A DNA stretch of 32,000 bases from Candidatus Saccharimonadota bacterium (GCA_016699955.1 CP064993.1:90001-122000); one strand, 5' to 3'; positions 11,805-28,676 are shown, counted from the stretch's first letter. Program-made: numbers and translations. Notes: generated from the letters alone by a model not told the origin.

Positions 11805-12014
11805 AGTGTCTGTAACCCCCTGCCCAATTAGTAAATGAATGAAGGTAGCTAATCATATGCTAGTGTTTGTGTCAAATAGATTTTTTTGTGCACTGGTTCG
11901 GATTGAAACTAGCAAAATGGCAAAAAATGGTTTCAAATCACTTACATTTTACAGCATATAGTCAACTTACGCGAACTGCCTGTCAACGCCTTGTCATATG
12001 GAATAACCTTCTTT

Positions 12015-12028
12015 CCACTGCCGGTTAG
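12015..12028 (+). repeat. Direct repeat copy 1: CCACTGCCGGT-TAG
   Basis: The exact 11-mer CCACTGCCGGT at 12015-12025 recurs at 12136-12146. Confidence 0.6.
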
Positions 12029-12135
12029 AAAATGATTTTTAAAAATACACTTGCATTTCATAAAAAAAAGTAGGAAACTAATTTTCATAGCCTGCGCGGT
12101 TGGGCGGCGTACTCTTTTTTTTCTAAGAGAGACAA

Positions 12136-12148
12136 CCACTGCCGGTAG
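12136..12148 (+). repeat. Direct repeat copy 2: CCACTGCCGGTAG
   Basis: The exact 11-mer is shared with 12015-12025. This copy lies ~110 nt upstream of the 12259 start. Confidence 0.6.
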
Positions 12149-12258
12149 CTATCATGTACCCGTGCTGGCTTGCTGCAGCACTGTTAGTGAGTACTTGCGC
12201 CGGTGTTTAGGCAAGTCACTAGAAAGTCGTTAGACGGTTTGCAGACAATTAATTAACA

Positions 12259-14325
12259 ATGGTTTTTAAAAAGGGTATACACAATATGGGTATAGGTCGA
12301 AAGAAAGAAACGCCTCCATCTCCGTTAGGAGCAGAGTCACTAATGACTCAGGCAGATTTTGGCGATGTTTTAAACCAGCCCATGCCAATTAGCACACTTG
12401 TAGATACGTATGGATACCCGGGCGGAAGCGTACTAGGCTATGTGCCCGCAAGCCCACATAAGGAAGTAGCTCATTTTTTGCCCGATAGCTCGTTGGCACT
12501 TGTGCTAAAATCTCCCAATAAATTGTTGGAAAACGCTGTCAGCGGTCGTATTGCAGATATACTCCTACCTTCCCCAGGTTCGAACCCAAGCTCTCCGCTT
12601 CGCAGACGAACCGAAATACTTGTCAGCAGTCAATGGGGTCCGGGGAGGCTATATTCCGCTGCACAAGAGCTCATCAATCAGGACCGTCAAACACGAAATC
12701 CTTATAAGGATTTTACGGGAGCATATGCAGTGTTTATGGAAACGGATCCAGCCATAAAACCACACCCCTTGGCAGACGGCGAGCTTTACCATGACAAAGG
12801 TGATCTGCAGCTTGTCGGCACAATGACTACTGGTGATGCGTTCCCTTCTGACACATTTTTTGACACGAGAGCTATCTTTTCAGGAAATGAGTCGGGTTGG
12901 CCGGAATATGGTTTTGTAAACCAAGTACTCGAAAACTCGCAGGAGGCAAGAGATTATACTGATAGGTTCGGAGGAGAGCGCCAATTTAGGACTCTCGTTG
13001 ACGGTTTAATCACATTTGGTGGCAATTTGTATGCACAACTAGGGGCTATTGCAGAAAAAAATGCAAAAAATAACAAGAAACGCGATGTCGACCTAGACGA
13101 TTTAATGAAAACCGCGCTAAAGGGGACACCCAGAGGAACGGAGGAACTGCTCAAGGAATTTCTGGCAAACAACGGTAACAATCCGTTCATGCTCCGCGTC
13201 CTCAGCCGAGCTTGGCAGGCGAAAACAGATGCTGAAAATGATTATGATGAAATCCCATTTGGGTTCTTCGGTGGTGCAAAGAAATTGCATTATCAAGCAG
13301 CCGTCGAACAGCGGATAAATGGTATTCGAGCTGAGGTTGTCGAGGCTTTACTGCATGGAAGCTGGGTAAACAAGCTGGGGAAAGTTGTTTTAGCCACAAG
13401 AGCATTGCCCCCTCCAACTCGGCTAAGAGTTGAACTATACGACCATTTTGATGTTTCATTTGCCCAGTTACTTCGCCAGATAAATGTGGGTCAATTTGCC
13501 GCAAGCGCACAATTAGCGGCGAGTAATATGAATGCGCCCAACATATCTGACAGCGGCATTTTGGTAGTCCGGTCATTAGATAGCGCTTACCCTATTTTCA
13601 GCTATGGCTCTCCAACAAATGATGAACAATTTCAAGAAATAAGCAGCTTTCAATACGACGGCAAGGGCGGCATGATTGTGGACAATCCCAATGGTAGTTA
13701 TCCAAGAGAACTGTCCCGTTCAATATTTGACAGAACGACTGGGCACGTTGCAATGCAGGGTATTGTGTCGGTGTCTGACAGCGCGCTTAGACTTCGTAAT
13801 GCATTACTTTACCCGCGCAGAAAAGTCGTGATCGATCTTATGGAGGCTCCTGCCAAAATATTGGAGGCACTAATGGACGCCGGGCACCTCGGGGAAGGCG
13901 CGCGCAAAATTCCTGAAAAAGATACACTATTCCTTAGCGAGATCCTTAGTCGAAAACGTGAAACCGACATCATCGTGGCGTCAATGCTAGGATCCTCGGC
14001 TGTAGTGCATGCGGTCATTAGAGAAGGTGGCGGAATGCAATGGGTTAGCGTTCCCCAAACATCGACTGGTGCGCCAGGAATAATTACAGACACTACTAAA
14101 GTTGCTCGGCTCAGAGGAGAACAAGCAGGTAGACCCGGTCAATCCGGCGACTATGTCATGCAGAGTACTCGGCGTCGGGGGTGGGGAGAAAGGGGCGGCA
14201 CGCACATCGCAGGAGTTGCGTTGAAAGACGGCGTGCCTTTACTGTCAAATAGTATTTATCCAGATGTTAGTACTTGGGTCATGCCTCATTCAAGTTTACT
14301 ATTTGATGGTAGGAGGAAAAGATAA
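12259..14325 (+). CDS. Hypothetical protein (688 aa), soluble, no recognisable domain
   Basis: ORF 12259..14325(+). It is a long uninterrupted frame with ordinary globular composition and no TM or signal. The start is uncertain: ATG 12259 has no SD, while ATG 12344 has AGGAG 11 nt upstream. Its stop overlaps the next gene's start (TAATG at 14323-14327). Confidence 0.7.
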   Translation: MVFKKGIHNMGIGRKKETPPSPLGAESLMTQADFGDVLNQPMPISTLVDTYGYPGGSVLGYVPASPHKEVAHFLPDSSLALVLKSPNKLLENAVSGRIADILLPSPGSNPSSPLRRRTEILVSSQWGPGRLYSAAQELINQDRQTRNPYKDFTGAYAVFMETDPAIKPHPLADGELYHDKGDLQLVGTMTTGDAFPSDTFFDTRAIFSGNESGWPEYGFVNQVLENSQEARDYTDRFGGERQFRTLVDGLITFGGNLYAQLGAIAEKNAKNNKKRDVDLDDLMKTALKGTPRGTEELLKEFLANNGNNPFMLRVLSRAWQAKTDAENDYDEIPFGFFGGAKKLHYQAAVEQRINGIRAEVVEALLHGSWVNKLGKVVLATRALPPPTRLRVELYDHFDVSFAQLLRQINVGQFAASAQLAASNMNAPNISDSGILVVRSLDSAYPIFSYGSPTNDEQFQEISSFQYDGKGGMIVDNPNGSYPRELSRSIFDRTTGHVAMQGIVSVSDSALRLRNALLYPRRKVVIDLMEAPAKILEALMDAGHLGEGARKIPEKDTLFLSEILSRKRETDIIVASMLGSSAVVHAVIREGGGMQWVSVPQTSTGAPGIITDTTKVARLRGEQAGRPGQSGDYVMQSTRRRGWGERGGTHIAGVALKDGVPLLSNSIYPDVSTWVMPHSSLLFDGRRKR

Positions 14326-15479
14326 TGTCGGAATTTGGTGGCATAGCCGTACCAATAGGCGAAGACACTAAACGACCACTGCCGAACGTGAGTAGTGGCT
14401 TAGACGAACCGGAACATCAGCCAGCGACACCCTTAGAAGCACGGACAATTATAATGCCGGTGGGTAGCGATACAGAGGGGCAAGTACTAGCAGTACAAAT
14501 CACATCACTTGGTGTAGATAGCTCAGTTGTCATTGAGAATATAAATGAGCTTCCACCTTACTTTACCCTAGGATCTCGTGGTGAAGTCTCTGACGATGGA
14601 AGTAAACTCGGTGTTGGGCCTGTATTTAACCACCCAGCTCGCTTACCAGACACCATTCCCCAAGCAACAGATCCAGAGACATTAGTTGGATTGTTGCAAA
14701 GAGGTACATTATTACCAGCCGATTTGGGTAAACTAACACCGGTTGAGGGTGTTTCTGCAGCAGACCTGCTGAAAGGCTTGACACAAGCAGAGCGGGAAGC
14801 CAATAACAACGGGCAACCACCCCTCAAAGTTGCTGACTTACTTGAATCGGTTAGCGGGGCAGTATTTTTCTCGACAGATGCTCCTGGTCATGGTCGTGGT
14901 AATACACTACTCGGCGGGGCTCGACCAGGTGGCACCATTGTCGCTCTCAGCCTCACTCCGGAAGGCGCAGTGCAAGTTGAAAAAATACATCCCCTGGATG
15001 ACGGAGGTACCATTCGATATATTGGATCTGTCGCTATTCAAAAAAAAACCGATCAAGCTGGAGAGGGTACGACAGTCATTATATCAGGCCCTGGTGTCAT
15101 ATTAGATAAACGGTTTCCTGAGGGAGTGCATCATTTAGACGTTCATACCGGTTTACCTCCGGGTATTACCAACTTAACGCCTAAGACTCAGCTGCCGCCC
15201 GTAACACTGGATCTCGACACAGTCAACAAAGGCCGGAGAGCGCTCGGCTTACCCCTAGTAGCTACACCTAAAGTTAACCTGGCCTCTCTGACAAGTTTAC
15301 CCCCGCAACCACAAAACGGACATGCTCAAAACAATGGTTCTATTGGTAACCCACCATTATCTGGAGGAGAGGGTACTGAGTCTGGATCTGCTGACAAAGT
15401 TACACAAGCGGGTAGCGCAGAAGAAGTGCCGCTATTTGATGCTCCAGAAAGAAGACCGTTGTGGCCAACTCGGAGGTAA
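14325..15479 (+). CDS. Hypothetical protein (384 aa), P/G/T-rich termini, no recognisable domain
   Basis: ORF 14325..15479(+). A strong SD (AGGAGG, 14311-14316) lies 8 nt before the ATG, which overlaps the upstream stop. This suggests translational coupling. There is no TM or signal. Confidence 0.75.
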   Translation: MSEFGGIAVPIGEDTKRPLPNVSSGLDEPEHQPATPLEARTIIMPVGSDTEGQVLAVQITSLGVDSSVVIENINELPPYFTLGSRGEVSDDGSKLGVGPVFNHPARLPDTIPQATDPETLVGLLQRGTLLPADLGKLTPVEGVSAADLLKGLTQAEREANNNGQPPLKVADLLESVSGAVFFSTDAPGHGRGNTLLGGARPGGTIVALSLTPEGAVQVEKIHPLDDGGTIRYIGSVAIQKKTDQAGEGTTVIISGPGVILDKRFPEGVHHLDVHTGLPPGITNLTPKTQLPPVTLDLDTVNKGRRALGLPLVATPKVNLASLTSLPPQPQNGHAQNNGSIGNPPLSGGEGTESGSADKVTQAGSAEEVPLFDAPERRPLWPTRR

Positions 15480-15543
15480 CTAACGATATGACGTCTTAAA
15501 GCAAGTAAACCGTAATGAATAAGCAATTACAAAGGGAGCAGCT

Positions 15544-16383
15544 ATGCGAGGAAGTAAAAGAATAACATCATACGCAGGGGAAGGAGTTGAAGTGCCCGGG
15601 TTTAGGGACCCGAAGACAACAGGCGATAGTACTACGCACTTTACTGATGGCGGGAAGCTGGGCATTGAGACCCGATGTACTCCTGAGGCTTTCCGCAAAG
15701 CGTACCCTATACCAACCGTTCTTGGCTTTATGCTCAGAAAAGTGCACTGGGTTCCGCGTGCCATAATTAGCCCGGAGCATTTACATGTTGACGATGAATA
15801 TAACGCTAAGCTCAAGAGTGTTGCTGTTGATCGTGCGCATAAACGAGGTAAGCTGGGAAACGTACTAGATCCTTTTAGCCATGGTAAGGTTGTACGGAAA
15901 GAGTCACACGGCCTTGAATACCAGCGCCTTAGGGCAGCCCGTATTGGGCTGGTTGGCCTAGCAGCCACAGCGTTGTTGACCGTCGCGACTGATAACGTAC
16001 CCTTTATAGAAAGGCAGAGTGGCTCCATCGAAGCCATCGATACCTCTCCAAGGGCTGGCAGCTCAATCTTAGACGGTGGAGTAATCGCTGGAACGGGACA
16101 GGAAAAGGCTAATGCAAAAATCTCCTTTTTAGGCGGAGCAATTGTCTGCAATAGTCTGATCCCTTTCAAGCTGTCGCCGGATAATGTCGCAGCCCCAGCC
16201 AACCTGATTGCTGCAATGTCGATCGTAAGTGGCGAAGCCTTTACATCCTTACCGGCTGCTGATCAGACTAGACTTCTGAGCGAGGCAATCGCCAATAAAG
16301 AAGTCAACCCAACCCAAGCAAAACCACCGACCGCAACGAGCCCGTTTTATAGCCCAAGCACCTGCACGGGCAAAGGTCTTTAG
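15544..16383 (+). CDS. Hypothetical protein (279 aa) with one central TM helix
   Basis: ORF 15544..16383(+). GGGAG lies 5 nt upstream of the ATG. The gene is co-directional with the two preceding genes. The TM segment is IGLVGLAATALLTVAT. I prefer it over the antisense ORF 15480..16202(-), whose product is S/C/P/L-rich and has no SD. Confidence 0.6.
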   Translation: MRGSKRITSYAGEGVEVPGFRDPKTTGDSTTHFTDGGKLGIETRCTPEAFRKAYPIPTVLGFMLRKVHWVPRAIISPEHLHVDDEYNAKLKSVAVDRAHKRGKLGNVLDPFSHGKVVRKESHGLEYQRLRAARIGLVGLAATALLTVATDNVPFIERQSGSIEAIDTSPRAGSSILDGGVIAGTGQEKANAKISFLGGAIVCNSLIPFKLSPDNVAAPANLIAAMSIVSGEAFTSLPAADQTRLLSEAIANKEVNPTQAKPPTATSPFYSPSTCTGKGL

Positions 16384-16880: not shown

Positions 16881-17549
16881 TTATCGATTACGACCTGGAG
16901 CTGGAGTTACCGGTATCTGACAGGTAGCGCCTTCAGCGATCGAGTTCAGGCCACATACTGACATACTTCCTCCTGTAGGAGCTTTTCCTGTAAGGTAGTC
17001 GAAAGGACGCGCCGTTGTTGGTGCTGGTACCGGTGCTAGCGCTGCAGCCGGACGAGCAGCTGGTTCATAACAGTTTGTTACCTTATCAGTGATTGCCTTG
17101 CCTAATGCTGCAAGGGTAAGGGGACCGATTGCTTCAGGGCTTACTGCGCCACCTTCTTGCAAAACATTGGGATTGGTTGCACCCAAGTTCCTCTTAAATC
17201 TCAGTGAAGATTCGGTAGTTTTTTCAAGGAAATTACCTGCTGGAACCATATCTGCTGGTGTACACCCCACTGATGCGAGCATGCTTTGCGCTGAGAGTAC
17301 GTCCTGGCCAACCATGCCTTTAACCAAAATTCGTGTCGCCGCTGCAACCTCACCCTGTCCTTGGGGAACGGCAGGCGCAGCAGGACCAGTAGCAGCCGCG
17401 GTAGCAATGCCACCCCAGCCCTCTTTTATTGTCCCTTTTTCACTTCCCTTGACACCACATCCTGCTGTTGCTGCTAAGAAAGCCGCTGCAATACCGGTAG
17501 TTACTATTGTCCTTCGGTTGGAAAGAATACCTTCCATACTAATTCTCAT
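16881..17549 (-). CDS. Lipoprotein with putative peptidoglycan-binding (PG_binding_1-like) domain
   Basis: ORF 16881..17549(-), 222 aa. It has a signal plus lipobox (IAAAFLAATAGC). The PG_binding_1 spacing pattern is present: LVKGMVGQDVLSAQSMLASVG...GNFLEKTTESSLRFKRNLG...GAVSPEAIGPLTLAAL. AAGGAGA lies upstream of the ATG. Confidence 0.65.
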   Translation of the reverse strand: MRISMEGILSNRRTIVTTGIAAAFLAATAGCGVKGSEKGTIKEGWGGIATAAATGPAAPAVPQGQGEVAAATRILVKGMVGQDVLSAQSMLASVGCTPADMVPAGNFLEKTTESSLRFKRNLGATNPNVLQEGGAVSPEAIGPLTLAALGKAITDKVTNCYEPAARPAAALAPVPAPTTARPFDYLTGKAPTGGSMSVCGLNSIAEGATCQIPVTPAPGRNR

Positions 17550-17636
17550 AATAAATATATTCTCCTTATATCACTCATTATAGAGTGTAATAGGGCGTAT
17601 TATACCACTCAAGTGTATTGGCAGCAATTACATTTC

Positions 17637-20276
17637 CTACGAGTCACTGTCAATATTATTAACTCCGGGGTCTTGGTTAACACCTGTAATTTTGGGTACA
17701 CTCGCGGGGTTAGCCACATAGCCTTTTGCGCGGTTTACCACTTCGGTCCAGTACTGAGCAATGGATGGGTACTTACCCCCGCCCTGCCCTCTATTAACAT
17801 CATAGCCTTTGCTTTTCCAACCAGAGCCAGCGTACCAACCCCCAGCAACGTCTTTCCATATAGACTCTTCGTTAGCATCTGGAAACTTGTCGTTTGAAAA
17901 CTTCTTGTAAATATCACCGACTTCCCTTCGCATCTGGTCGTATTGAAATTGCGGTGGAGCATCTCTGGCCGATTTGAATCCGCCCCGCCCGCCCCATGTC
18001 CCTACCATCCAGTTTCCTAAGCCTGCTGCTCCGGAATCTGAGTTGAATGACCGCGGGTTGCCACGGGACTCCTGATAAATGATTGAGTTAACCATGGCCT
18101 CAAGCATCACCTTGTGAGCGGGGGACTTGTTCGTCTCCGCCGGCTTAGATGCGCCCTCAGTAGAAGATGGGGTTGCAGTTTTATCATCATTCAACGGTGT
18201 GATTGTGCCATCTAGTGGAGAGGCGCCTGGTGCTTGAGTAGGGGTTGGAGAAACAACCACGCTAAGCGAGCCCACTCCCGCCAGCGCTGTTTGCCCCATT
18301 TCAAGCGGATTTACTCCAGAGTCGACTTGCTCTGGCTTGTCCACACTATCTGCAACCGGAGTTACTTCGGCTGGCACACCTATGGCCACGGTACCAGGGG
18401 TCAAACCGGCAATAGCCACGCTAGGCTGCTGAGGAGTAAGTAGGCTAAGGGGGTTGCGCGTCGCGGGATTAAATACTGGCTGTGGGGAGGTAGAAGCTTG
18501 TTGTGGCGGTGTAGGTGCCTTCTGTTTTGGCTGGTCTGCCTGTTGTGGGGATACGCCTACGAAGCGCATCCCTACATATGTCAGATCATCGCCCTCCCAC
18601 TTATGAAATGTTTCCTTAAAACGATCTGAGAGATTGCCGTCAAACGACCAGTAGCCTTTACCGTTTGGATCAAATCGAGAGAAACGCCCAACGTGATTAT
18701 CGCCATCATGTCCAGTTTTTTTACTCACTCGATAAAACAGGTAATCACCATATACAATTATGTCGTTCAGCTTTCCATTCCGAAAATCCGCAGCAGTATA
18801 TAGCTTAGAACCCGGTTCATTTTCTATGGCCAGCATCATCTCATATGCACCCACGATTCTTCCACTCGACCATGCGGCTTTAGGCCGATTTGTTGTAAGA
18901 ACATAACCGGCATCTGTGTCTATTTGCCAGGCCGCTCCGGCGCACCACGGCCAGTCACGACCTTCCCTGCCTTCCATAAAAAGTTTTGCTGGCAGACCAT
19001 CATTATTACCGGTTTTTTCCCTAATATTCATTTGGAGGTATGCTTCGGCTTTAATCTCAACAGCCTTTGAATAAGCTTTTCGAGATGGTGTTAATACCGA
19101 TACAGTTTCCGCTGGCTGTAGTGTCGGGGCAGTTGGCGCTTCCGACTGGGATTGATCCAGTGGATTTGGGGCTACCCCAAGTGGTGTAATTACGGTCGCG
19201 AGTGGTGCGGGGGTACCAGGTGCATCTACAATATAATCATCTACGCGTTTGATTCCTGAGAAAAGTGTCGTGGACAAATCTCTTGTGAGTGGGTTGGTTG
19301 CTCCACCCATCCGATCCAGTGGTGTAATTTCGACAGCTGGGACAAGCGCACTCAGCGGTTGTGTCGGCAGTTGTTGGCTGACATTATAAGTCCCTACGAG
19401 CGGTTGACTACCCTGGAGGTCAGGTGTAGTGCCGGGTGCCGAAGCCACAGTGCCACTGGGAAATTGAGCAATCCGAGACAATGCTTCGAACGGTGAAACA
19501 GTAAGCAGTTGTTGAGGTGTGGGGCTACTCACTATTTGGGGCGCAATTGTGACGCTTGCGACAGGTACAGTACGAGGATTTGCTACTTCTGCTGCGTTTA
19601 TACCTAGTCTGGGGCTGGGCTGGGGACTGGCTACTTGAACTGGGGTACCCTGGGACAGCAAGGCAGTTGTTTCGGTTCGGGCTCCTGGGGTGTCTGAAAC
19701 GACGGTAGCTGGGCGTAAGTCGGGTATACCTGCCCAACCTGTGGTAATGCGCCGACTGTCCGGCGTCATGGTCGCTCCAGCAACAATTGCTGTCTGATTC
19801 AGGCTTGTCTCCCCAACCGGCACTACGGTTGCAGGTGTACCCGTGGTCGCAAGTCGACCGAGCGGAGCAGTTGGTGATAATACATTTGTCCGAGACTCGG
19901 TGGATGTTGAACCTATTCCTGCAGCTAAACTTGGTAAACCCTGACCCGTCATTCTCTGGACGATACTTTCAGGAAGAACAATCTTCGGCGGTGCTTCTAG
20001 GATAGTGGGCTCAGTAGAAATACCCCCGATTTGACCGGGTACTAGGGCGGCCCCAACAATCGGGTTCGTAGGCAGTATGCCACCGGACTGTGGCTGCCAG
20101 TTTGCTATCAGTGCCAAGTCGCTCCCACCGGCACCCGACTGTACGGCAAGAGAGAGAAGAACGCCAGCTCCTGCTGCTCTAACAGACCCTGGGGGCATAT
20201 GAGTATCGGCCGTCAAACGCGCAGGCGGTGCGAGCTGCGCGATGTGCCTTGCTAAACTATTGGGGTCATAATACAT
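17637..20276 (-). CDS. Large two-domain peptidoglycan hydrolase: ~400-aa P/T/S/Q-rich region + CHAP-like cysteine amidase/peptidase + C-terminal SLT-type lytic transglycosylase
   Basis: ORF 17637..20276(-), 879 aa. GGAGAAACTC lies before the ATG. The CHAP-like core has DWPWCAGAAWQI (Cys ~445, codon 18942-18944). It continues DIIVYGDYLFYRVSK...DNHVGRFSRF...WSFDGN (His ~528, codon 18693-18695). The SLT motif is IIYQESRGNPRSFNSDSGAAGLGNWM (Glu ~736, codon 18069-18071). Confidence 0.85.
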   Translation of the reverse strand: MYYDPNSLARHIAQLAPPARLTADTHMPPGSVRAAGAGVLLSLAVQSGAGGSDLALIANWQPQSGGILPTNPIVGAALVPGQIGGISTEPTILEAPPKIVLPESIVQRMTGQGLPSLAAGIGSTSTESRTNVLSPTAPLGRLATTGTPATVVPVGETSLNQTAIVAGATMTPDSRRITTGWAGIPDLRPATVVSDTPGARTETTALLSQGTPVQVASPQPSPRLGINAAEVANPRTVPVASVTIAPQIVSSPTPQQLLTVSPFEALSRIAQFPSGTVASAPGTTPDLQGSQPLVGTYNVSQQLPTQPLSALVPAVEITPLDRMGGATNPLTRDLSTTLFSGIKRVDDYIVDAPGTPAPLATVITPLGVAPNPLDQSQSEAPTAPTLQPAETVSVLTPSRKAYSKAVEIKAEAYLQMNIREKTGNNDGLPAKLFMEGREGRDWPWCAGAAWQIDTDAGYVLTTNRPKAAWSSGRIVGAYEMMLAIENEPGSKLYTAADFRNGKLNDIIVYGDYLFYRVSKKTGHDGDNHVGRFSRFDPNGKGYWSFDGNLSDRFKETFHKWEGDDLTYVGMRFVGVSPQQADQPKQKAPTPPQQASTSPQPVFNPATRNPLSLLTPQQPSVAIAGLTPGTVAIGVPAEVTPVADSVDKPEQVDSGVNPLEMGQTALAGVGSLSVVVSPTPTQAPGASPLDGTITPLNDDKTATPSSTEGASKPAETNKSPAHKVMLEAMVNSIIYQESRGNPRSFNSDSGAAGLGNWMVGTWGGRGGFKSARDAPPQFQYDQMRREVGDIYKKFSNDKFPDANEESIWKDVAGGWYAGSGWKSKGYDVNRGQGGGKYPSIAQYWTEVVNRAKGYVANPASVPKITGVNQDPGVNNIDSDS

Positions 20277-20312
20277 GAGTTTCTCCGGCTAGGACGTTTT
20301 TACCCATTTATG

Positions 20313-21173
20313 TTACTGTGCCTCCGTCAGTTGGCATGTAACTATGTGAGGGGTTGCAACAAGCTGTTTAGTGGCTGGGTCGGTCGATTGAACCATAAGA
20401 CCGACATATACATTCGGAACATTCGGACTATCTGGTTTCATTGTGTAGGGCGCAATTGCGTAAGCATTTTCAGCTGTCAAAAGATCTTTGGCCGGTATGT
20501 CGGTACTATCACGAAGAAGCCACCCGGCATGGACCTGAGCCTTTTGCACAACGGCTGCCATGTCATCCCTGCACATCTGTGCCGTCTCTAGTGCACGTTT
20601 TTTTTCTGCCTCACTTGCACCTTTTTTTACCACCGTCATTGAGGCAACAATATCCCCAAGGGTTAGTTTATTGACTTGTTCTGGCGTGACTGGTTTGGCT
20701 AGTCCTGCCTTATCAGTATAAGTAGCGCCGTACGCGTCCGTAAAACCTTCGACACTATATGTAAATGTGGGGAACACGACAATATGCCCGTCTTTCCCCC
20801 GAGCAATTTTTCCGGCGTTCACCGCATAACTACCAAGTACTTGACTATTCGCGCCTTCCCGGCGAAGCGATGCGGGGATTTCACGTGGCTTGGTCTGTAA
20901 TGGTGCGGCCATCCAGCCAGTTGCGCACCAGCCCGAGTCACTTTTTATACAGTAGCTGTTTATGTGACCTAAAAAATCGCTACCCAAATCTCTACCCATA
21001 TAGCCGGCGACACCAAGAACAGTGCCTAAGCCAGCGGCAATCACCTTGCGCCTTGTGATAAACCGATTGCCGGAGCCGCCCAGCACGTAAATCACCGATG
21101 GAGTTCCGCTGCCATAGCCGTTACCATTAGCTGGCAACAGATCGCTCATGTTAAACTTTTTGCCTTTAGCCAT
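20313..21173 (-). CDS. Hypothetical membrane-anchored protein (~286 aa)
   Basis: ORF 20313..21185(-). I place the start at ATG 21173 (MAKGKKF), which has GGAG 7 nt upstream. The track's start at 21185 is a TTG. There is one N-proximal TM helix (VIAAGLGTVLGVAGYM). I recognise no family for the remainder. Confidence 0.7.
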   Translation of the reverse strand: MAKGKKFNMSDLLPANGNGYGSGTPSVIYVLGGSGNRFITRRKVIAAGLGTVLGVAGYMGRDLGSDFLGHINSYCIKSDSGWCATGWMAAPLQTKPREIPASLRREGANSQVLGSYAVNAGKIARGKDGHIVVFPTFTYSVEGFTDAYGATYTDKAGLAKPVTPEQVNKLTLGDIVASMTVVKKGASEAEKKRALETAQMCRDDMAAVVQKAQVHAGWLLRDSTDIPAKDLLTAENAYAIAPYTMKPDSPNVPNVYVGLMVQSTDPATKQLVATPHIVTCQLTEAQ

Positions 21174-21211
21174 CACATACTCCAAACAGATCTATTCTAA
21201 ACTTCATCTTG

Positions 21212-22306
21212 CTAACCCGCCGCCATTAACTTACCAGTTCCGCAACTCACTTTTGTTGGGTTAGCGACAACACTCCACCGTATAGTTGTGTCCTCAAGCC
21301 CTTCGATCTTTGTCGTTGTTCCTGTCATGCTCGCAATACGAGCATTGAGAATTGCTTGGTATTTTTCAACACGTTTTGCATCTGAGGTAATATGTACCCT
21401 AAAGCTGTCGCGGATTGGTTTTTCTTCCGATATTTGTCCCGGTTGTTTTGGCTCCGGATATTGATCAGCAAATGCTTGGGTTATCCTATCCCTGACGACC
21501 TTGTCCGAACCATAGATCTCTAGGAGTCCGCCCAAAGCCACTTTAGCAATTTCACGCTCTACAGCCTGCAGAGACATCCCGCCATTTTGGAGCGCTTCGA
21601 GCGGACATGCTTGGGCATTAACCGAATCGACGATAAGAGCAGCTAAAGCTGTCCTTAGAACTGCCTCGATTTCATCTTTCCCTTCAGTGTCCATATTTGT
21701 TTTAAAAAACCCACCATCATCATTCTTCCAGAGTTGTTCGTTTGCCAGGCCACCCGCCTCCTCTCCAGCTGCCACTCTGGTGGAGCAGACCTCGATAGGC
21801 TCAGTAAAAACTTTTACCTTTACTCTATCTAGTCCATCAGCGACAATTGAGGTCTGGAGCGTTGATTTTGGTGGTATGCCGTTTATGCCTCCCTTGTCTG
21901 CCAGATCGGTACCAAAACAAACTTGATACCTGGCTGTTACTACTTTTTCATTGTTCTTGTTCCAGGTTATATTTGAACCAGGACCCTCCCAAAATCCTTT
22001 CCATTTTTCATTGTCGATCCTGACGTTTGCTTCACCTTTGAGAGTCATGGCGACTTCACCTAAAACATGTTTTTGGATAGTATTGACCGGAAATTCACGT
22101 TCTTTTACCGGGGCTTGCACGGTAGCTGTTACTTCAGTATGACCCGTATCCCAGCCGAAACATTTGCTAATACTACCTGCTGTATTATTTCCAGTTACGA
22201 CCTCGGCCGAGCAATTGACACCATCACGAAAACCAGGCACAAAAGCATATACTGATGCAACTGATGCAAGTCCTACTGCAACGCATCCGGCTGCTACCTT
22301 ACCCAT
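21212..22306 (-). CDS. Hypothetical exported/anchored protein (364 aa)
   Basis: ORF 21212..22306(-). It has an N-terminal hydrophobic signal or anchor (MGKVAAGCVAVGLASVASVYAF). Several Cys residues are spaced through the exported part. No recognisable domain. Confidence 0.7.
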   Translation of the reverse strand: MGKVAAGCVAVGLASVASVYAFVPGFRDGVNCSAEVVTGNNTAGSISKCFGWDTGHTEVTATVQAPVKEREFPVNTIQKHVLGEVAMTLKGEANVRIDNEKWKGFWEGPGSNITWNKNNEKVVTARYQVCFGTDLADKGGINGIPPKSTLQTSIVADGLDRVKVKVFTEPIEVCSTRVAAGEEAGGLANEQLWKNDDGGFFKTNMDTEGKDEIEAVLRTALAALIVDSVNAQACPLEALQNGGMSLQAVEREIAKVALGGLLEIYGSDKVVRDRITQAFADQYPEPKQPGQISEEKPIRDSFRVHITSDAKRVEKYQAILNARIASMTGTTTKIEGLEDTTIRWSVVANPTKVSCGTGKLMAAG

Positions 22307-22361
22307 AATTGACCTACGCTTGATTTATAAACTTGTAATAGTTGTGTGTGTAACATATCGC

Positions 22362-23030
22362 TCAGTCCTTTCTTATACTATGCAAATCACAATTCGTAGC
22401 AGCAGCACCAACCGGAAGTACCTTAAAAGCCACCGGCACGGTTTCGCCTGGAGGAACTACCCCTGTTTTTGCCAACAAATCTTTCGCTAAACGATGAAGT
22501 TTTTCTGCTACTATTCTGCAGGCCTCTAGGTTTGCGGGGTCAGCCAGCGTTCGGGGTGCGTCAGCAAGATTCGTTGCTACCGGCGAAAAAGTTATTTCGC
22601 CATTTGTGGCCTGTTGCGCTTTACTGACGTCAAGGCAGAGTGCCGTCTTAAGCGTAGTCGAAGCGGCCGTTGCTGCAGGGCCATGAATGATAATCTCTTT
22701 ACCCATCTCAGGACAACCGTTAGTGTTATCCGATTTCAACTTTGACAATGCTTGTGCGCCAACTGCAGGCGAGACAAAAATACGTCTTTCAACTGGTTTA
22801 GAACCATTGTTGTCTGTTGGACGAGCAAACGCATCAGGACCGATGACAATAAATTTACCTAAAATGCCTAGTTCAGTTGGCTCTACTCCGGCGATTGCCA
22901 AAAAGGAATCTGCCTCGGGATGATTTATAACAACTTCGCCGCCATGCGCATAAACATCTGCCACTCCCACCGCAAAAGCAGCCCCACAAAAAGCTAAAGA
23001 CCCCGCCACTATTCCATTTAGGGCATTCAT
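22362..23030 (-). CDS. Hypothetical exported protein (~222 aa)
   Basis: ORF 22362..23048(-). The track start is a TTG, and ATG 23030 gives MNALNGIVAGSLAFCGAAFAVGVADVYA, which is signal-peptide-like. No recognisable domain. Confidence 0.65.
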   Translation of the reverse strand: MNALNGIVAGSLAFCGAAFAVGVADVYAHGGEVVINHPEADSFLAIAGVEPTELGILGKFIVIGPDAFARPTDNNGSKPVERRIFVSPAVGAQALSKLKSDNTNGCPEMGKEIIIHGPAATAASTTLKTALCLDVSKAQQATNGEITFSPVATNLADAPRTLADPANLEACRIVAEKLHRLAKDLLAKTGVVPPGETVPVAFKVLPVGAAATNCDLHSIRKD

Positions 23031-23119
23031 AGTAATGTTATATACCAAATTAGAATAATAGTAAACTCTTGTGTAATATATTATTTACAACAGCTGCCTA
23101 ACTCTGCTAAATATTTCTG

Positions 23120-24061
23120 TCACTGACCCATTACTGTTACAAATGAAAACCCCTTCTCCCGATACCAAGAAATAATTCCAGGTAACGCGGCGACGGTATT
23201 ACTCCTGTTGGACGTTAACTCTGACTCCGGTTCCCCACTTGCCTTGTTTGTATGAAAGAGCACTATGGGATTATTGATACCATTTACCTTCGTTGCAGCA
23301 GCATGAATTGCTGCCGTAGACGCTTCGGTCGTACGGCTGGACTGCCGGTAGTCAAGTGTGTCAACTGACCACATAACCACACTCTTACCGAGTTTATTTG
23401 ACGCAGATATCACATTTGTTTGGAACCCACCGGGCGGGCGAAAAAAACAATCCGGCTTGCCGGTTAAGCCGGTCAGCGCATCTTCCGTTTGCTTAAGTTG
23501 ACTTTGGAGAAAGGCTGGTGTCCACCCGCCCATAACTTGCGTGGGATAACGATGATCATAAGAATGGTTAGCCACTTGCATACCCGCTGCTGCAAGTCTG
23601 CTGATTTCATTCGGAAATTTTTTGACATTTTCTCCAGTTACGAAAAAGGTTGCCTTTACACCCTCGCGCTGCAAAACTGTAAGCACATCCATAGTGGCAT
23701 TACCAGGGCCATCATCAAACGTTAGCGCAACGGTCTTGCCCTGACCCGGAGCATACTTTATTGGCTGTTTCACCGGCGGGGGGCACACAAGTTTTGACGG
23801 AGTTGTTGAAACAGGGGTCTGCTGACGATTTGAGGGTGCCGTATCTACTGGTTTCGCTGGTTGCAGATATATCGTTACTGGCGCATCAGCCAGGTTTGGC
23901 GCGCCTGGATACGCCGAGACAGTCGAGCTGCCGCCGTCCCCTTTAACAAAAAAATCATAGGCCGGCGCTGCTCCAACAACGAGCGTCACGCCCAAAGCAA
24001 TTGCTGGCCATCGTCTTTGCTCAACATTATGTTCATTTGTAGGTTTAAAACCTTTCGTCAT
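23120..24061 (-). CDS. Polysaccharide deacetylase (NodB homology domain; PgdA-like peptidoglycan GlcNAc deacetylase), membrane-anchored
   Basis: ORF 23120..24061(-), 313 aa. It has a TM helix (WPAIALGVTLVVGAAPAY). The NodB motifs are VALTFDDGPG, KATFFVTG and VANHSYDH. The SD is GAGGCGAGG immediately upstream of the ATG. Confidence 0.9.
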   Translation of the reverse strand: MTKGFKPTNEHNVEQRRWPAIALGVTLVVGAAPAYDFFVKGDGGSSTVSAYPGAPNLADAPVTIYLQPAKPVDTAPSNRQQTPVSTTPSKLVCPPPVKQPIKYAPGQGKTVALTFDDGPGNATMDVLTVLQREGVKATFFVTGENVKKFPNEISRLAAAGMQVANHSYDHRYPTQVMGGWTPAFLQSQLKQTEDALTGLTGKPDCFFRPPGGFQTNVISASNKLGKSVVMWSVDTLDYRQSSRTTEASTAAIHAAATKVNGINNPIVLFHTNKASGEPESELTSNRSNTVAALPGIISWYREKGFSFVTVMGQ

Positions 24062-24090: not shown

Positions 24091-25172
24091 AGCAGCCCTC
24101 CAGGTCCCTTTGAAGTAGGACACTAGCCAGAAAGGCTAGTGCATATGAAACGGTATAGAAAAATCCCTAAAATAAGTCGATCCAAATCTACAATAGTAGC
24201 TATGGGTCAAAAGTATGGTCATTTAAGCTACGAAGATCGAGTAAAGATAGAGCATTGGCACAGGGGCGGCAAAAGTATTCGCTACATAGCGAGCGAGTTG
24301 GGGCGTAGCCCCAATACTATTAGTTATGAATTGAAGAATCTAGCGGTCTCTGGTGAGTATGTTGCTCGTAAAGCCAGTGTCAAGGCATACCAAAAACGCT
24401 ACTGGGCGCGTACATCGAGTAATAAGGTAGCAAAAGATAAGACACTGCGCCAATACGTTGACGACAGTCTCGACAAAGGCTGGTCACCTGGTGAGATCGC
24501 TGGCAGCAGTGACTGTCCTGTTTCAAAACGGACTATCTACCGCTATGTCACACTCTATTCCCTGCAGCACAAGCTGTACTTTAAGGGTAAGCCGAAACGG
24601 AGAAAGGCCATGTACCGACGTGGGCTCATTGGCGAACGTAAATGGATTGAGGAACGGATACTGTGCGACGAAGTTGGTCACTACGAGCTTGACTTCATTG
24701 TCAGCCCAACGAGAAGCGGCAGTAAAGCTGTCCTACTGGTGGCCGTCGACACCCTAAGCAAACGAACCCTTATCGAGCTGCTCCCAAACCGAACCAAAAA
24801 AGAGCTCTCACGAGCTCTGAAGCGGATGTTTGACGGCATTGTCGTCAAGACCATACTGACCGACAATGACATCGCCTTCACCTACTGGAAACATTTCGAG
24901 CAGCTGCTCGGAGCACCGTTCTTTTTCACCCATCCCTACCATAGCTGGGAGAAGGGCTTAGTCGAGAATACGAACAAATGGATACGTCACTTCATACCGA
25001 AAAAAACAGACCTGAGCACGGTTACCAAAGAAACCATCGCTACAGTACTAGCGTACCTAAACGAACGCCCAAGACAAGTCTTGGGCTACAGAACTGCGAA
25101 TGAAGTATACTTAGAGAGATTAACAATACAGGTTTAGTGTCCTACTTGGGGGTATCCTGTACGAGCCCTAGC
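24091..25172 (+). mobile_element. IS30-family insertion sequence, apparently intact (ends +/- ~40 bp)
   Basis: It carries a single transposase ORF. The terminal inverted repeats have a perfect 13-bp core: AAGTAGGACACTA at 24113-24125 versus TAGTGTCCTACTT at 25135-25147. Imperfect extension runs outward (CAGG...; GC.AG..CTC) to about 24091 and 25172. The transposase stop codon lies inside the right IR. Confidence 0.8.
24145..25137 (+). CDS. IS30 family transposase
   Basis: ORF 24139..25137(+). I start at ATG 24145 (MKRYRK). The N-terminal HTH reads HLSYEDRVKIEHWHRGGKSIRYIASELGRSPNTISYELK. The DDE core has ELDFIV, ILTDNDIAF and PYHSWEKGLVENTNKWIRHFIPKKTDLS, which is the classic IS30 C-terminal signature. 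Confidence 0.92.
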   Translation: MKRYRKIPKISRSKSTIVAMGQKYGHLSYEDRVKIEHWHRGGKSIRYIASELGRSPNTISYELKNLAVSGEYVARKASVKAYQKRYWARTSSNKVAKDKTLRQYVDDSLDKGWSPGEIAGSSDCPVSKRTIYRYVTLYSLQHKLYFKGKPKRRKAMYRRGLIGERKWIEERILCDEVGHYELDFIVSPTRSGSKAVLLVAVDTLSKRTLIELLPNRTKKELSRALKRMFDGIVVKTILTDNDIAFTYWKHFEQLLGAPFFFTHPYHSWEKGLVENTNKWIRHFIPKKTDLSTVTKETIATVLAYLNERPRQVLGYRTANEVYLERLTIQV

Positions 25173-25351: not shown

Positions 25352-27625
25352 ATGGGATTTCGCAAATTCGTGGCCGTGGCAACCTTGGGTAGTGTTTTAG
25401 CCGGTTATGCGGGCTACAAAGGCCTCATCGAGCCAAATCAAATACCTGAAGATTTCGGCATCAGCAGCGTTGACTTTCCCATACCTCAGAAATTAGGGCA
25501 AACAGGCATAGCTGGGGGCGAAACAGGTTTAATCTGCGCTGCAGACACAAACCCCTGCACTAAAGCAAATGCACTTGGTGTCATGGCTACTGCTACGACT
25601 ACCGTGAAGACGGCGTATCAAGATATCAGTAATAAATTTGTTTCATCCCTAATTGCGGTTGAAGACAAAAACTTTCTTGCCAATGATGGATGCGATATAC
25701 AAGCAATTCTGAGAGCTGCAAGGGATTTTGGGCTAAGCGGTGGTTCGCGAGTACAAGGAGCCTCCGGTATTACTCGGCAGCTCGTCAGTAAAATCGACGC
25801 ATCACCTCGGCCACAAGATAAAAAAACACTCGATGCTATTGGTGCTGAAGGCGTCGAATGCCTTCAGGCTCGATACGTAGAGAAAGAACTACAAGCTAAG
25901 CTTGGCAGCAAGCAAGCTGCTAAAGACGTAGTCATTGAAGCGTTTTCAAACATTATCTCTTACGGTCGAGATGCGTATGGTATTGAAGCGGCTTCTAGGC
26001 AGTATTTTGGCAAATCTGCCAATAACCTTTCTTTGCCGGAAAGCCTTTTGCTAGTTGGCGTGATTAACGAACCTTCAAACTTTGACGTAAATTTTACCGC
26101 AGATTCGATTACACCCGAACGGTCAAGAATTTACGCAGATTTTAGTGCGTCGATAGCTTCGCAGCTCTCCAGCGATAATTCAACCAGTCAGCGCCGAAAC
26201 ATCACATACAGAGCACTCGCCACAGCTGTTGCTGATGGCACAATGAAACAGGATGTGGCAGATCAGATCAAAACCTACGCAGGGTACGTGTATGAGTCAC
26301 AGCGCTTAAGATACCGCTACGAAACAGTCGTCAACATTGCGGCCGATAACAATCCTAACCTGATAAGCCCAGACATGCGGGACTCATTGCTCAGAGCAGA
26401 AAATTTTCCGCTCATCATACCATATAAGCCAGTTGTACCTATGGGAATTAGTTTTAAGGGCGCAGAAAACATAAACGCTCAGCATTTCACTGATTTTGTT
26501 ATTAATAATTCGGCCGAGCTCTTGTCGGAAAAACTTGGCCGACCAGTCAACACACAAGAAGTTATGAGTGGGCGGTATACCATACAAACATCGCTTATAA
26601 CAGCCGACCAAGTCGCCATGAACAATGCTATCCAAAGCTACCCCCGTACTAAGTCGATAAACGGAGCCGGAGTAAGCCTCGACGAAAAGGGCAACATTGT
26701 AGCTATGGTCGGCAGTAAAAACTACGGACAGGTACAAACAAACATCGCCGTCGGCAAACTGGGTGGGGGTGGCGGACGCGATACAGGTTCAGGAAATAAA
26801 CACATTGCCTACGCCGTCTCGCTCGAAAATGGGGTTGATCCAAATGCACAAATCACTGTGCCTAACTCGGTTACAATAGAGCAACCGGGTCAACAGCCAT
26901 GGGTTGTAACTGGTCACACTGGTTGTAGCGCGCTGAAACTGCCCACACCTTGCAACATGACACCTTCCCAAGCACTAGCTACGTCATCAAATACGTGGGC
27001 AGCGGCCACTGTTAATAAATACGGCATACGCCAAATTGTCGACAAAATGAACGCGTTTGGCATGGTTGTCCCAGAGCCTTATGTACCCTCAATCATACTC
27101 GGTGCAACTGCAATGTCTCCGCTCCAAGAAGCAGTGGGCATGCGGGGCATCCTATCAAACGAGGGTACGGCGTTATTCTACGGCAAAACAGCCTGGTCGG
27201 CCATTAAAAAAATAACAGATAATACAGCGGACGGTAAAACGGTGTACGAACAGCCTGCGCCAACAAAAAAGGTTGTTTTTTCCACAGCAATCGCACTGGC
27301 AACAACCCAAGCACTAAAAACAGCCGTTAACCAACCCTACGGAACGGCATATGGCCAAATAAACTCTCCGTCTGGACCTGAAAGTGTTGCCGGCAAAACC
27401 GGCACGGCTGGTACGACGGCCGGCGAAAAAGATATTTGGTTTAGCGGTGGCGTACGAGACGCCGACAAAACACTGACGAGGTATTTTTCGTTTTGGGGCG
27501 GCCACGCAGATGCGGAACGTAGCATCGGCACAACCCTTGCTGGTGCCGATATGGCAGCCGTAGCCGGGCGGTACATTACAGGACGGCCTCACACTACTAC
27601 CCCTGCCGATATAGCCGCCAAATAG
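25352..27625 (+). CDS. Class A penicillin-binding protein (GT51 transglycosylase + transpeptidase), divergent
   Basis: ORF 25352..27625(+), 757 aa. It has an N-terminal signal anchor (FVAVATLGSVLAGYAGY). The GT51 motifs are IAVEDKNFLANDG, GASGITRQLV and VIEAFSNIISYGRDAYGIEAASRQYFGKSANNLSLPESLLLVGVINEPSNF. The transpeptidase part has SxxK-like GSGNKH, SSN and KTG (AGKTGTAGT). Confidence 0.85.
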   Translation: MGFRKFVAVATLGSVLAGYAGYKGLIEPNQIPEDFGISSVDFPIPQKLGQTGIAGGETGLICAADTNPCTKANALGVMATATTTVKTAYQDISNKFVSSLIAVEDKNFLANDGCDIQAILRAARDFGLSGGSRVQGASGITRQLVSKIDASPRPQDKKTLDAIGAEGVECLQARYVEKELQAKLGSKQAAKDVVIEAFSNIISYGRDAYGIEAASRQYFGKSANNLSLPESLLLVGVINEPSNFDVNFTADSITPERSRIYADFSASIASQLSSDNSTSQRRNITYRALATAVADGTMKQDVADQIKTYAGYVYESQRLRYRYETVVNIAADNNPNLISPDMRDSLLRAENFPLIIPYKPVVPMGISFKGAENINAQHFTDFVINNSAELLSEKLGRPVNTQEVMSGRYTIQTSLITADQVAMNNAIQSYPRTKSINGAGVSLDEKGNIVAMVGSKNYGQVQTNIAVGKLGGGGGRDTGSGNKHIAYAVSLENGVDPNAQITVPNSVTIEQPGQQPWVVTGHTGCSALKLPTPCNMTPSQALATSSNTWAAATVNKYGIRQIVDKMNAFGMVVPEPYVPSIILGATAMSPLQEAVGMRGILSNEGTALFYGKTAWSAIKKITDNTADGKTVYEQPAPTKKVVFSTAIALATTQALKTAVNQPYGTAYGQINSPSGPESVAGKTGTAGTTAGEKDIWFSGGVRDADKTLTRYFSFWGGHADAERSIGTTLAGADMAAVAGRYITGRPHTTTPADIAAK

Positions 27626-28174: not shown

Positions 28175-28519
28175 TTAATGAGTCTTACGTCTGTATAATA
28201 ATGACCCGAGAGCCAGCCCAACTAGAGCGTCAGTTCCTAGGAGAGCGGTGCCTAACGGAGTTGCCTCGCGCAATTCCGCACGCGGTTGCCCAGACACCCC
28301 GCTCCTCACGGTCTCTAACGTAGTGACCACAGGTGATAGAAAATATTCACCTGTATCCCATTGATCGCCCAGCCAGTGCTGTACCGCCGAGGGTGGAGAT
28401 TGGATACGCCCTCTTAAATCATCCGCCACAGCGTAGGTTTCTGTAGCTGCCACTAAACACCCGAGTGCAAGAACCATCCTAACACCCGCCTCTACCACAT
28501 TCAAACCTCGTTCTGCCAT
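28175..28519 (-). CDS. Hypothetical small exported protein (114 aa) with C-terminal hydrophobic segment + basic tail
   Basis: ORF 28175..28519(-). GAGGGAGA lies upstream of the ATG. It has an N-terminal signal-like helix (VRMVLALGCLVAATETYA). The C-terminus is ...REATPLGTALLGTDALVGLALGSLLYRRKTH. Confidence 0.6.
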   Translation of the reverse strand: MAERGLNVVEAGVRMVLALGCLVAATETYAVADDLRGRIQSPPSAVQHWLGDQWDTGEYFLSPVVTTLETVRSGVSGQPRAELREATPLGTALLGTDALVGLALGSLLYRRKTH

Positions 28520-28676
28520 ATTCCGTCTCCCTCTTTAGTTTTGTATTCACTCATATATACACCCGCCTGTAGATAATGCAAGCTATATGTCGCTTATTTG
28601 TAAATATTACAATCTTATTATCTGCCGAGCGCTTGCCGGCAAACCGTTCATACTGTGGAAAAACCCCTACAGCGAG

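Follow-up and report, generated by a model that had tools for sequence, protein, structure and literature searches.

A candidate clade-specific gene module for peptidoglycan cleavage, built around a tethered double-headed hydrolase, next to PBP1a in a Saccharimonadota bacterium

We analyzed a stretch of 32,000 nucleotides from a Candidatus Saccharimonadota bacterium (GCA_016699955.1 CP064993.1:90001-122000), here called the window, in which six minus-strand genes, G1 to G6, lie beside a divergently oriented gene for the class A penicillin-binding protein (PBP) PBP1a (Table 1). The reading that we favor, at a little under an even chance, is that five of these genes, G2 to G6, would form a clade-specific module that cleaves the peptidoglycan of the cell's own wall alongside PBP1a. 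In the center of the cluster is G5, which looks like a double-headed hydrolase with predicted intact catalytic sites for the cutting of both peptides and glycans. The strongest argument for selection on a peptide- and glycan-cutting unit is that different lineages carry different catalytic heads, with the accessory genes retained in place. We infer that the five proteins interact physically, that their genes are co-transcribed, and that the cell's own wall is their target.

The comparison included the window, lineage A (Candidatus Saccharimonadales bacterium MAG_MBR_AS.65), and lineage B (Logan assemblies), the latter two of which were read over ±10 kb, as well as a 3-kb contig from lineage C (GCA_035459365.1). 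The gene order in lineage A was PBP1a on the minus strand, followed by genes for proteins of 211, 365, 290, 910, and 204 amino acids, the last of which contained a PG_binding_1 domain. The corresponding order in lineage B was PBP1a on the minus strand, followed by genes for proteins of 254, 358, 286, 788, 208 (PG_binding_1), and 381 (GH73) amino acids. The order G2-G3-G4-G5-G6 beside a divergent PBP1a gene was thus found in the window and in lineages A and B, and the PBP1a gene directly adjoins the G2 orthologue in the relatives. Located downstream in lineage A were orthologues of the window genes o279, o384, o688, and o476 and genes for a beta-lactamase-fold protein and an amidase_3 protein, and the downstream neighbors in lineage B were the same. 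The gaps within the cluster were 34 to 71 nucleotides in lineage A and -4 to 143 nucleotides in lineage B, including a 4-nucleotide overlap between the stop of G4 and the start of G5, which suggests translational coupling.

The orthology of G2, G3, and G4 was established from BLASTP and profile searches, with sequence identities of 28% to 34% and E-values from 1e-13 to 1e-52; for G2 to G5 together, the identities were 28% to 35%. PBP1a of the window was 62% identical to that of lineage A and 44% identical to that of lineage B, and the values among the three were 62%, 44%, and 47%, which makes the window and lineage A sisters. A previous interpretation of the same stretch, made from the DNA alone and here called the sequence-only reading, had taken the organism for a member of the Candidate Phyla Radiation (CPR), which agrees with the finding that the closest syntenic relative is a Candidatus Saccharimonadales bacterium. 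It had also proposed that co-occurrence of the genes be profiled in relatives, and the three family-less proteins were indeed kept together with the hydrolase and the peptidoglycan-binding lipoprotein at 28% to 36% identity. Its unit of six genes was reduced to five, as described below for G1.

A hydrolase with both a CHAP-type and an SLT-like domain was identified in the window and in lineage A. The hydrolase in lineage B contained only the CHAP-type domain and no SLT head, and a gene for a GH73 glucosaminidase of 381 amino acids (PF01832, E=1.6e-17; L007 11992-13137, L008 11225-12370) started 5 nucleotides after the G6 orthologue. Judged from its predicted domain, the glucosaminidase looks like a non-orthologous replacement of the glycan-cutting activity. 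The contig from lineage C (L012 567-2973) contained a G4-like fragment (E=2e-4) directly upstream of a gene for a hydrolase with VanY and SLT domains, so that at least the G4-G5 junction was kept. The anchor, the tether, and the SLT-like C-terminus of this hydrolase were the same, and a VanY domain (LAS metallopeptidase) replaced the cysteine peptidase.

Proteins of the G5 type were found in 3 to 4 lineages among 1.84 billion representative sequences, and a single match was obtained among 185,579 GTDB species genomes. A word-indexed profile search returned only 2 fragments and missed the true orthologues. No match was obtained when metagenomes at JGI were scanned with the alignments of the CHAP-like domain and of G3, nor when a genome collection was scanned with PBP1a.

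The G5 protein starts with a short N-terminus and a weak Gly/Ala-rich segment at approximately residues 35 to 57, followed by a stretch of about 340 to 350 residues that is enriched in Pro, Thr, Ala, Ser, and Val and in which no tandem repeats were found. The layout of a short N-terminus, a weak Gly/Ala-rich segment at approximately residues 35 to 65, and a Pro/Thr/Ala/Ser/Val-rich stretch of 300 to 400 residues was common to all four lineages, and we infer that the N-terminal part is a membrane anchor with a flexible tether. It was also noted that Cys445, the predicted catalytic cysteine of the peptidase head, is the sole cysteine among the 879 residues of G5, and that G2 to G4 and G6 carry 4 to 7 cysteines each, most of which are conserved.

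The CHAP-type domain of G5 was detected neither by Pfam or NCBIfam, even at E≤10 with the isolated domain (residues 398 to 575), nor by a sequence search against the PDB. The SLT-like domain scored 12.2 to 15 bits against the Pfam model, below the cutoff of 21.3 bits, and G5 gave a weak transglycosylase match in the PHROG search. In an exhaustive HMMER search with residues 395 to 879 against the 1.84 billion representatives, we identified an orthologue of 910 amino acids with the same architecture (P0004, E=1e-55), which reached 28.4 bits against the SLT model, and an orthologue of 788 amino acids that was matched only over the peptidase part (P0005, E=8e-25). The search also identified a partial analogue of 802 amino acids with a VanY domain and the same SLT-like domain (P0008). 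About 90 proteins shared the C-terminal domain, most of which carry the Pfam domains SLT (PF01464) or Transglycosylase-like (PF06737). The peptidase region was matched by a protein with a Pfam CHAP score of 32.1 bits (P0089, phmmer E=7e-4). Around the PWCAG motif, G5 was matched by another bona fide Pfam CHAP protein (P0094) and by two proteins with CHAP scores of 51 bits (P0021, P0028). The latter two are encoded by stand-alone chromosomal genes and contain a CHAP domain followed by an SLT domain, which is the order in G5. The matches to CHAP proteins are confined to the first third of the domain, where the catalytic cysteine is located.

An AlphaFold2 model of G5, inferred from an alignment of 33 rows, had predicted local distance difference test (pLDDT) values of 80 to 92 for the peptidase, 90 to 97 for the SLT-like domain, and 30 to 40 for the linker between them. 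In the fragment numbering of the model, Cys445 opens the helix 50-61, His528 opens the strand 133-141, Asp546 closes the strand 147-152, and Glu736-Ser737 is located at the end of the helix 325-343. Foldseek searches with the peptidase gave a probability of about 0.9 to the papain-like protein Alr0975 and of 0.99 to a viral CHAP protein with a template modeling score (TM-score) of 0.48, the TM-scores being modest. The SLT-like domain matched phiKZ gp144, Cj0843 Slt, MltF, MltE, and g-type lysozymes with a probability of 1.0. Furthermore, Cys445, His528, and Asp546 were invariant among the G5 orthologues, and the QES motif was conserved in the window and in lineages A and C. The double-headed hydrolase of glycan and peptide proposed in the sequence-only reading was thereby recovered, with the catalytic residues kept in the orthologues, and the enzyme looks catalytically intact in alignment and model. 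That reading had also assigned NodB, CHAP, SLT, and peptidoglycan-binding domains, all of which were borne out, those of CHAP, SLT, and peptidoglycan binding indirectly, through orthologues or a structure model.

A match of G5 to a Kelch-design (SAKe) protein in the PDB was rejected as a repeat artefact, as no single stretch was significant. An SLT-like domain of the G5 type was also observed in a protein of 923 amino acids (P0093, L014 10001-12772), which is an internal virion or ejection-type protein of a T7-like phage and is surrounded by genes for a head-tail connector, capsid, tube, nozzle, and tail fiber. This protein illustrates that the lysozyme-like subfamily has affinities to phages.

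The G6 protein had no direct match to PG_binding_1 (PF01471) at E≤10. Its positional orthologues carry this domain, with scores of 38.1 and 26.2 bits at a cutoff of 23 bits, and a profile of the orthologues matched G6 at E=8.9e-4 in a proteome of 1,200 proteins. A lipobox, FLAATAG followed by C31, is located after a hydrophobic segment, and the orthologues have an equivalent cysteine.

No direct match to G2, G3, G4, or G6 was obtained in Pfam, NCBIfam, or PHROG, and sequence and profile searches against the PDB with G3, G4, G5, and G6 gave only chance-level matches. The proteins G2, G3, and G4 were not paralogous to one another or to other proteins in the window, and they appear to be without detectable relatives outside the clade. 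The orthologues of G2 contained 211 amino acids in lineage A and 254 in lineage B and were 28% to 32% identical, and their profile matched G2 at E=8.7e-21. For G3 the orthologues contained 365 and 358 amino acids (profile E=2.9e-52), and for G4, which was directly upstream of the hydrolase gene in every lineage read, 290 and 286 amino acids (profile E=2.1e-29). A word-indexed search with G3 among 5.8 billion sequences matched only G3 itself and missed the true orthologues. A low-confidence AlphaFold2 model of G3, from 10 rows and three lineages, had a pLDDT of 37 and Foldseek probabilities of at most 0.16, with hints that the N-terminal half is rich in beta strands and the C-terminal half is helical.

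Invariant cysteines numbered four in G2, four in G4, and at least five in G3, which fits extracytoplasmic proteins stabilized by disulfides. Hydrophobic N-terminal segments were identified in G1, G2, G3, and G6, and weaker Gly/Ala-rich segments, conserved in the orthologues, in G4 and G5. The suggestion from the sequence-only reading that the three proteins without family are exported or anchored agrees with both the N-terminal segments and the conserved cysteines. We also asked if the small exported proteins could belong to the Pam pilus operon known from Mycosynbacter. This operon has been described beside the ATP synthase genes (10.64898/2026.03.03.709456), and the identity was rejected as no ATP synthase gene was found in the window.

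Table 1. Positions of the genes, predicted domains, and predicted catalytic residues in and around the cluster, counted from the first nucleotide of the window.
Feature	Coordinates	Strand	Description	Basis
G1	23120-24061	-	Membrane-anchored NodB/CE4 polysaccharide deacetylase, 313 aa; domain nt 23384-23746	PF01522
G2	22362-23048	-	Exported protein, no family, 228 aa, 4 conserved Cys	N-terminus, orthologues
G3	21212-22306	-	Exported protein, no family, 364 aa, conserved Cys	Orthologues
G4	20313-21185	-	Probable type II membrane protein, 290 aa, ~220-aa ectodomain	RRK and Gly/Ala-rich hydrophobic segment
G5, whole gene	17637-20276	-	879 aa
G5, aa 1-397	19086-20276	-	Short cytoplasmic N-terminus, weak Gly/Ala-rich anchor, low-complexity tether (predicted)	Composition, hydropathy
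G5, aa 398-575	18552-19085	-	Predicted papain-like CHAP-type cysteine peptidase domain	Transitive homology, AlphaFold2, Foldseek
G5, Cys445	18942-18944	-	Predicted catalytic residue
G5, His528	18693-18695	-	Predicted catalytic residue
G5, Asp546	18639-18641	-	Predicted catalytic residue
G5, aa 576-719	18120-18551	-	Pro-rich disordered inter-domain linker	pLDDT 30-40, composition
G5, aa 720-865	17682-18119	-	Predicted SLT/goose-lysozyme-like lytic transglycosylase domain	Orthologue Pfam, AlphaFold2, Foldseek
G5, Glu736-Ser737	18066-18071	-	Catalytic (predicted)
G6	16881-17549	-	Lipoprotein with diverged PG_binding_1-like domain, 222 aa	Orthologues, lipobox
G6, Cys31	17457-17459	-	Lipobox cysteine
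G6, aa 74-123	17181-17330	-	PG_binding_1-like region
IS30-family element	24113-25147	+	Insertion sequence (HTH_38 and rve)	Domains, inverted repeats
PBP1a	25352-27625	+	Class A PBP (transglycosylase and transpeptidase), divergent	Pfam Transgly E=3e-31, Transpeptidase E=3e-11

The list of open reading frames contained six co-directional minus-strand frames at positions 16881-24061, separated, from G1 to G6, by gaps of 71, 55, 26, 36, and 87 nucleotides, exactly as described before from the sequence alone. The codon usage of G1 to G6 was host-like, that is, similar to that of the confident genes in the window, and this held for frame 0 only, unlike the overlapping antisense frames. The listed starts of G2 and G4 are TTG codons, and an ATG codon a few residues downstream is equally possible; in G2, translation may in fact begin at an ATG located 18 nucleotides downstream. 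In a consensus scan, none of the five intergenic gaps contained a terminator-like hairpin on the minus strand. The scan identified 17 promoter-like sequences compared to 10.7±3.2 in shuffled sequences, and 15 terminator-like sequences compared to 10.9±3.1, and neither of these numbers was clearly above that of shuffled sequence. Co-direction, short gaps, and the lack of an internal terminator, as expected of an operon, were thus found for G1 to G6 as a whole.

The first gene, G1, codes for a deacetylase that scored 107.7 bits against PF01522 (cutoff 23.1 bits, E=4.8e-31). All five motifs of the CE4 set (TFDDG, H(S/T)xxH, RPPxG, DxxD(W/Y), and LxH) were identified, namely TFDDG at residue 114, HSYDH at 166, RPPGG at 208, DTLDY at 234, and LFH at 268. 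Like the NodB deacetylases of the PgdA/PdaA type, G1 is a membrane-anchored extracytoplasmic CE4 protein with all catalytic motifs, but it differs from these in that it scored far below every NCBIfam equivalog cutoff and is not conserved with the cluster. Neither a gene for a NodB protein nor an IS30 element was found between PBP1a and G2 or elsewhere in the ±10 kb read from lineages A and B, and the conserved unit therefore consists of the five genes G2 to G6. Since the window groups with lineage A to the exclusion of lineage B, a single gain of the NodB gene in the lineage of the window is parsimonious, and G1 is most parsimoniously interpreted as a lineage-specific add-on outside the conserved core. 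The inclusion of the deacetylase in a six-gene unit is hence not upheld by the two relatives with a readable upstream region, nor is the associated suggestion of self-protection by deacetylation, as protection of this kind is not built into the module at either of the two readable syntenic loci.

The insertion sequence of the IS30 family has perfect terminal inverted repeats of 13 bp (AAGTAGGACACTA) at positions 24113-24125 and 25135-25147. It is located 51 nucleotides upstream of the start codon of G1, between the cluster and PBP1a in the presumed former divergent promoter region, and it may disrupt the promoter of the cluster or supply one. A single native transcript of six genes is doubtful because of this position. 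Furthermore, the AT-rich gap of 71 nucleotides between G1 and G2 is the positional counterpart of the ancestral promoter region, which argues against assuming one unit of six genes; G1 to G6 may or may not still be on one transcript. We also observed a copy of the terminal repeat with one mismatch (AAGTAGGAAACTA) at positions 12068-12080, in the intergenic region upstream of the open reading frame of 688 amino acids, which could be a solo end of an insertion sequence or a chance occurrence. In total, there were 4 matches to the repeat at no more than 2 mismatches compared to 0.5 expected, of which 2 are the termini of the element itself and a third is located inside it.

According to the reading that we favor, G5 would be weakly anchored in the cytoplasmic membrane, and its long Pro/Thr-rich tether would carry two peptidoglycan-cutting heads, of which the CHAP-type head would act as a cysteine peptidase or amidase and the SLT-like head as a lytic transglycosylase. 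The proteins G2 to G4 and G6 may position or restrain the hydrolase, as do the membrane regulators of hydrolases of the RipA or PcsB type. The module would serve for the controlled opening of the own wall, coordinated with the synthesis of new wall by the neighboring PBP1a, so that the cell can grow, daughter cells can separate, or surface structures can pass through. The NodB gene would have been added upstream in the lineage of the window only, and the IS30 element would later have landed in the promoter region.

The closest functional parallel to such a self-wall module is the RipA-RpfB-PBP1 system in mycobacteria, in which a class A PBP cooperates with an endopeptidase and a lytic transglycosylase (PMC2912383), and for which membrane regulators of RipA such as SteAB are known (PMC12977500). 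RipA (NlpC/P60), RpfB, and PBP1/PonA1 share with the proposed module a papain-like peptidase and a lytic transglycosylase that act on the own wall, a link to a PBP, and membrane control. The differences are that G5 would fuse both activities on one tethered polypeptide, in which the low-complexity spacer is very long, that the link to the PBP in our case consists of gene adjacency only, and that G2 to G4 have no detectable similarity to the known regulators.

Several observations weigh against the reading that we favor. Proteins of the G5 type are extremely rare, which is odd for a housekeeping role in division and fits better with an accessory role, and the swapping of heads and the long tether would be expected as well if the enzyme were directed against foreign walls that vary. 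No fold was assigned to G2, G3, or G4. Furthermore, a neighborhood of about 20 kb is collinear among the window and lineages A and B, in which the other clade-specific genes o279, o384, o688, and o476 evolve as fast as the genes of the cluster, and conserved order alone is therefore weak evidence for function.

Saccharimonadales are known as obligate epibionts, and G5 could instead digest the peptidoglycan of the host at the site of attachment, for a conduit or for the uptake of nutrients, in which case G2 to G4 and G6 would be docking or gating parts and the NodB protein would have been recruited secondarily for the protection of the own wall. We consider this unlikely, while giving it more weight than any other alternative. 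The organism belongs to Saccharimonadales, within the parasitic and ultra-small Saccharibacteria, and the flexible tether of about 340 residues is present in all lineages. In a related activated-sludge species, cryo-electron tomography has revealed a conduit that traverses both the parasite wall and the host wall (PMC11880426), and another Saccharibacterium reportedly requires genes for a peptidase and a lysozyme in order to grow as an epibiont (10.1101/2025.01.22.634366). The exchange of heads, CHAP for VanY and SLT for GH73, resembles that in phage lysins, which track the chemistry of the host wall. Lysins from phage tails, tape-measure proteins, and internal virion proteins are also among the nearest relatives of both heads in structure and sequence, and the G5-type proteins are rare and fast-evolving. 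On the other hand, a self-protecting deacetylase is missing in the relatives, no secretion or attachment machinery is adjacent to the cluster in the window, PBP1a, the partner that is conserved, belongs to the cell itself, and modular shuffling and linkers are also seen in ordinary autolysins. The more specific proposal that G2 to G6 are a hitherto unrecognized device of a Saccharimonadales subclade for the breaching of host walls, in which the three new exported proteins and the peptidoglycan-binding lipoprotein gate the tethered hydrolase and its heads are swapped in the course of evolution to match the peptidoglycan of each lineage's host, seems to us rather improbable.

It is also doubtful that there is no dedicated machine at all and that the genes are independent envelope neighbors, with the hydrolase being an ordinary autolysin and G2 to G4 unrelated lineage-specific surface proteins. 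This would be consistent with the conserved order over 20 kb in lineages A and B, which includes unrelated genes without known function as well as genes for housekeeping enzymes, with the lack of similarity of G2, G3, and G4 to each other or to known families, and with the possible presence of promoter-like sequences inside the cluster. Arguments to the contrary are the tight gaps and the overlap between G4 and G5 in lineage B, the persistence of the adjacency between G4 and the hydrolase despite the replacement of the peptidase head, and the insertion of a glycosidase gene exactly where the hydrolase has lost its SLT head, which argues for selection on the unit.

The sequence-only reading had hinted at a resemblance to type IV secretion systems (T4SS), and G5 could accordingly be a VirB1-like wall opener of a monoderm (MPF-FATA-like) T4SS or conjugative element, with G2 to G4 as VirB8- or PrgL-like components. 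A transmembrane anchor combined with SLT and CHAP domains is reminiscent of PrgK, TraG, and TcpG (PMC11323569; 10.1101/2025.01.22.634366), and the layout of G4, with an N-terminal transmembrane segment followed by an ectodomain of about 220 residues, is VirB8-like. The T4SS of Patescibacteria have been described as MPF-FATA-like, with virB1-like hydrolases rarely located beside virB4, and Southlakia has essential genes for a peptidase and a lysozyme downstream of virB4 (10.1101/2025.01.22.634366). This explanation is nevertheless very improbable. No genes for VirB4, VirD4 or another type IV coupling protein, VirB6, VirB3, or a relaxase were found in the window or within 10 kb on either side in the relatives, and the hint thus has no support from the context. 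With its location on the chromosome and its synteny at 44% to 62% identity in PBP1a, the locus is not a mobile element, and a tblastn search with the catalytic half of G5 gave no match in 72,556 plasmids. The order of domains in G5 is CHAP followed by SLT, the reverse of that given for the monoderm VirB1 proteins (10.1101/2025.01.22.634366). We found no link between the locus and the T4SS of Patescibacteria.

The comparison to this group of enzymes is informative for the architecture of G5. PrgK (pCF10), TraG (pIP501), TcpG, and CwlT share with it an N-terminal anchor and SLT and CHAP or NlpC/P60 domains for the local opening of the wall (PMC11323569; 10.1101/2025.01.22.634366). In contrast to these, G5 is encoded on the chromosome and has no T4SS genes nearby, the order of its domains is reversed, and it has a tether of about 340 residues and an inter-domain linker of 145 residues.

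The nearest neighbors of the SLT-like head, of the type QESGGN ... GGKYPSI, are lysins from phage tails, tape-measure proteins, and internal virion proteins with LT_GEWL/SLT and CHAP domains, which are modular and exchange heads, as does G5. The difference is that G5 is predicted to be membrane-anchored and is part of a conserved cellular cluster with no phage context. That the locus is a prophage or a remnant of a phage-derived lysis or tail lysin is the least credible of all explanations, in spite of the grouping of this head with tape-measure and internal-virion lysins, as the neighbors have no match to structural, lysis, or replication proteins in PHROG, the catalytic half of G5 is unmatched in 50,697 phage genomes (tblastn), the peptidase domain is unmatched in IMG/VR, the codon usage is host-like, and the synteny is chromosomal and conserved.

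The neighborhood in the window is rich in wall enzymes, including PBP1a, an amidase_3 protein, a beta-lactamase-fold protein, and MltG. The genes o476, o688, o384, and o279 (window 10374-16383; L001 12658-18821; L007 13222-19252) are convergent to or beside the cluster and are arranged identically in lineages A and B, with sequence identities of 22% to 34% or below detection. The start of o384 overlaps the stop of o688, none of the four had a match in Pfam, NCBIfam, or PHROG, and most are without an export signal. On the other side of PBP1a (window 28175-29774; L001 1320-3065), we observed genes for proteins of 114, 174, and 185 amino acids that belong to no family and are 33% to 50% identical in the relatives. 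Hydrophobic N-terminal segments were noted in the 114- and 185-residue products, and one relative contained an extra gene for 62 to 68 amino acids that resembles the C-terminus of the 174-residue protein.

A few other features were observed at a larger distance from the cluster. At positions 2351-5489, a gene for an FtsA/PilM-like actin-fold protein (Pfam FtsA 7e-13, PilM_2 5e-7) overlaps by 8 nucleotides with a gene for a protein of 611 amino acids, which is a single-pass membrane protein of no family, and the pair may belong to division or to a pilus system. The alanyl-tRNA synthetase encoded at positions 5586-7481 contains only 631 amino acids, with the catalytic core and the SAD editing motif and apparently without the usual C-terminal part. 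A protein of 636 amino acids encoded at positions 29917-31827 has a weak Kelch-like match, a Pro/Thr/Gln-rich center, and a C-terminal hydrophobic anchor, and is possibly a surface protein.

No description of the G2 to G6 cluster as a unit was found in the literature searched. In its predicted domain architecture, G5 is a new variant of the known bifunctional wall hydrolases, and the three putative accessory families are new. The impact is limited in that the module is present in very few known lineages, apparently all of which are uncultured. Within these, the locus is a modular candidate for how epibionts of the CPR cross the thick wall of a host or remodel their own wall with few genes. If it acts on the own wall, it would represent a compact, fused RipA/Rpf-like system with new regulators, and if the wall of the host is the target, the module would represent a device of a new type for the contact-dependent opening of walls.

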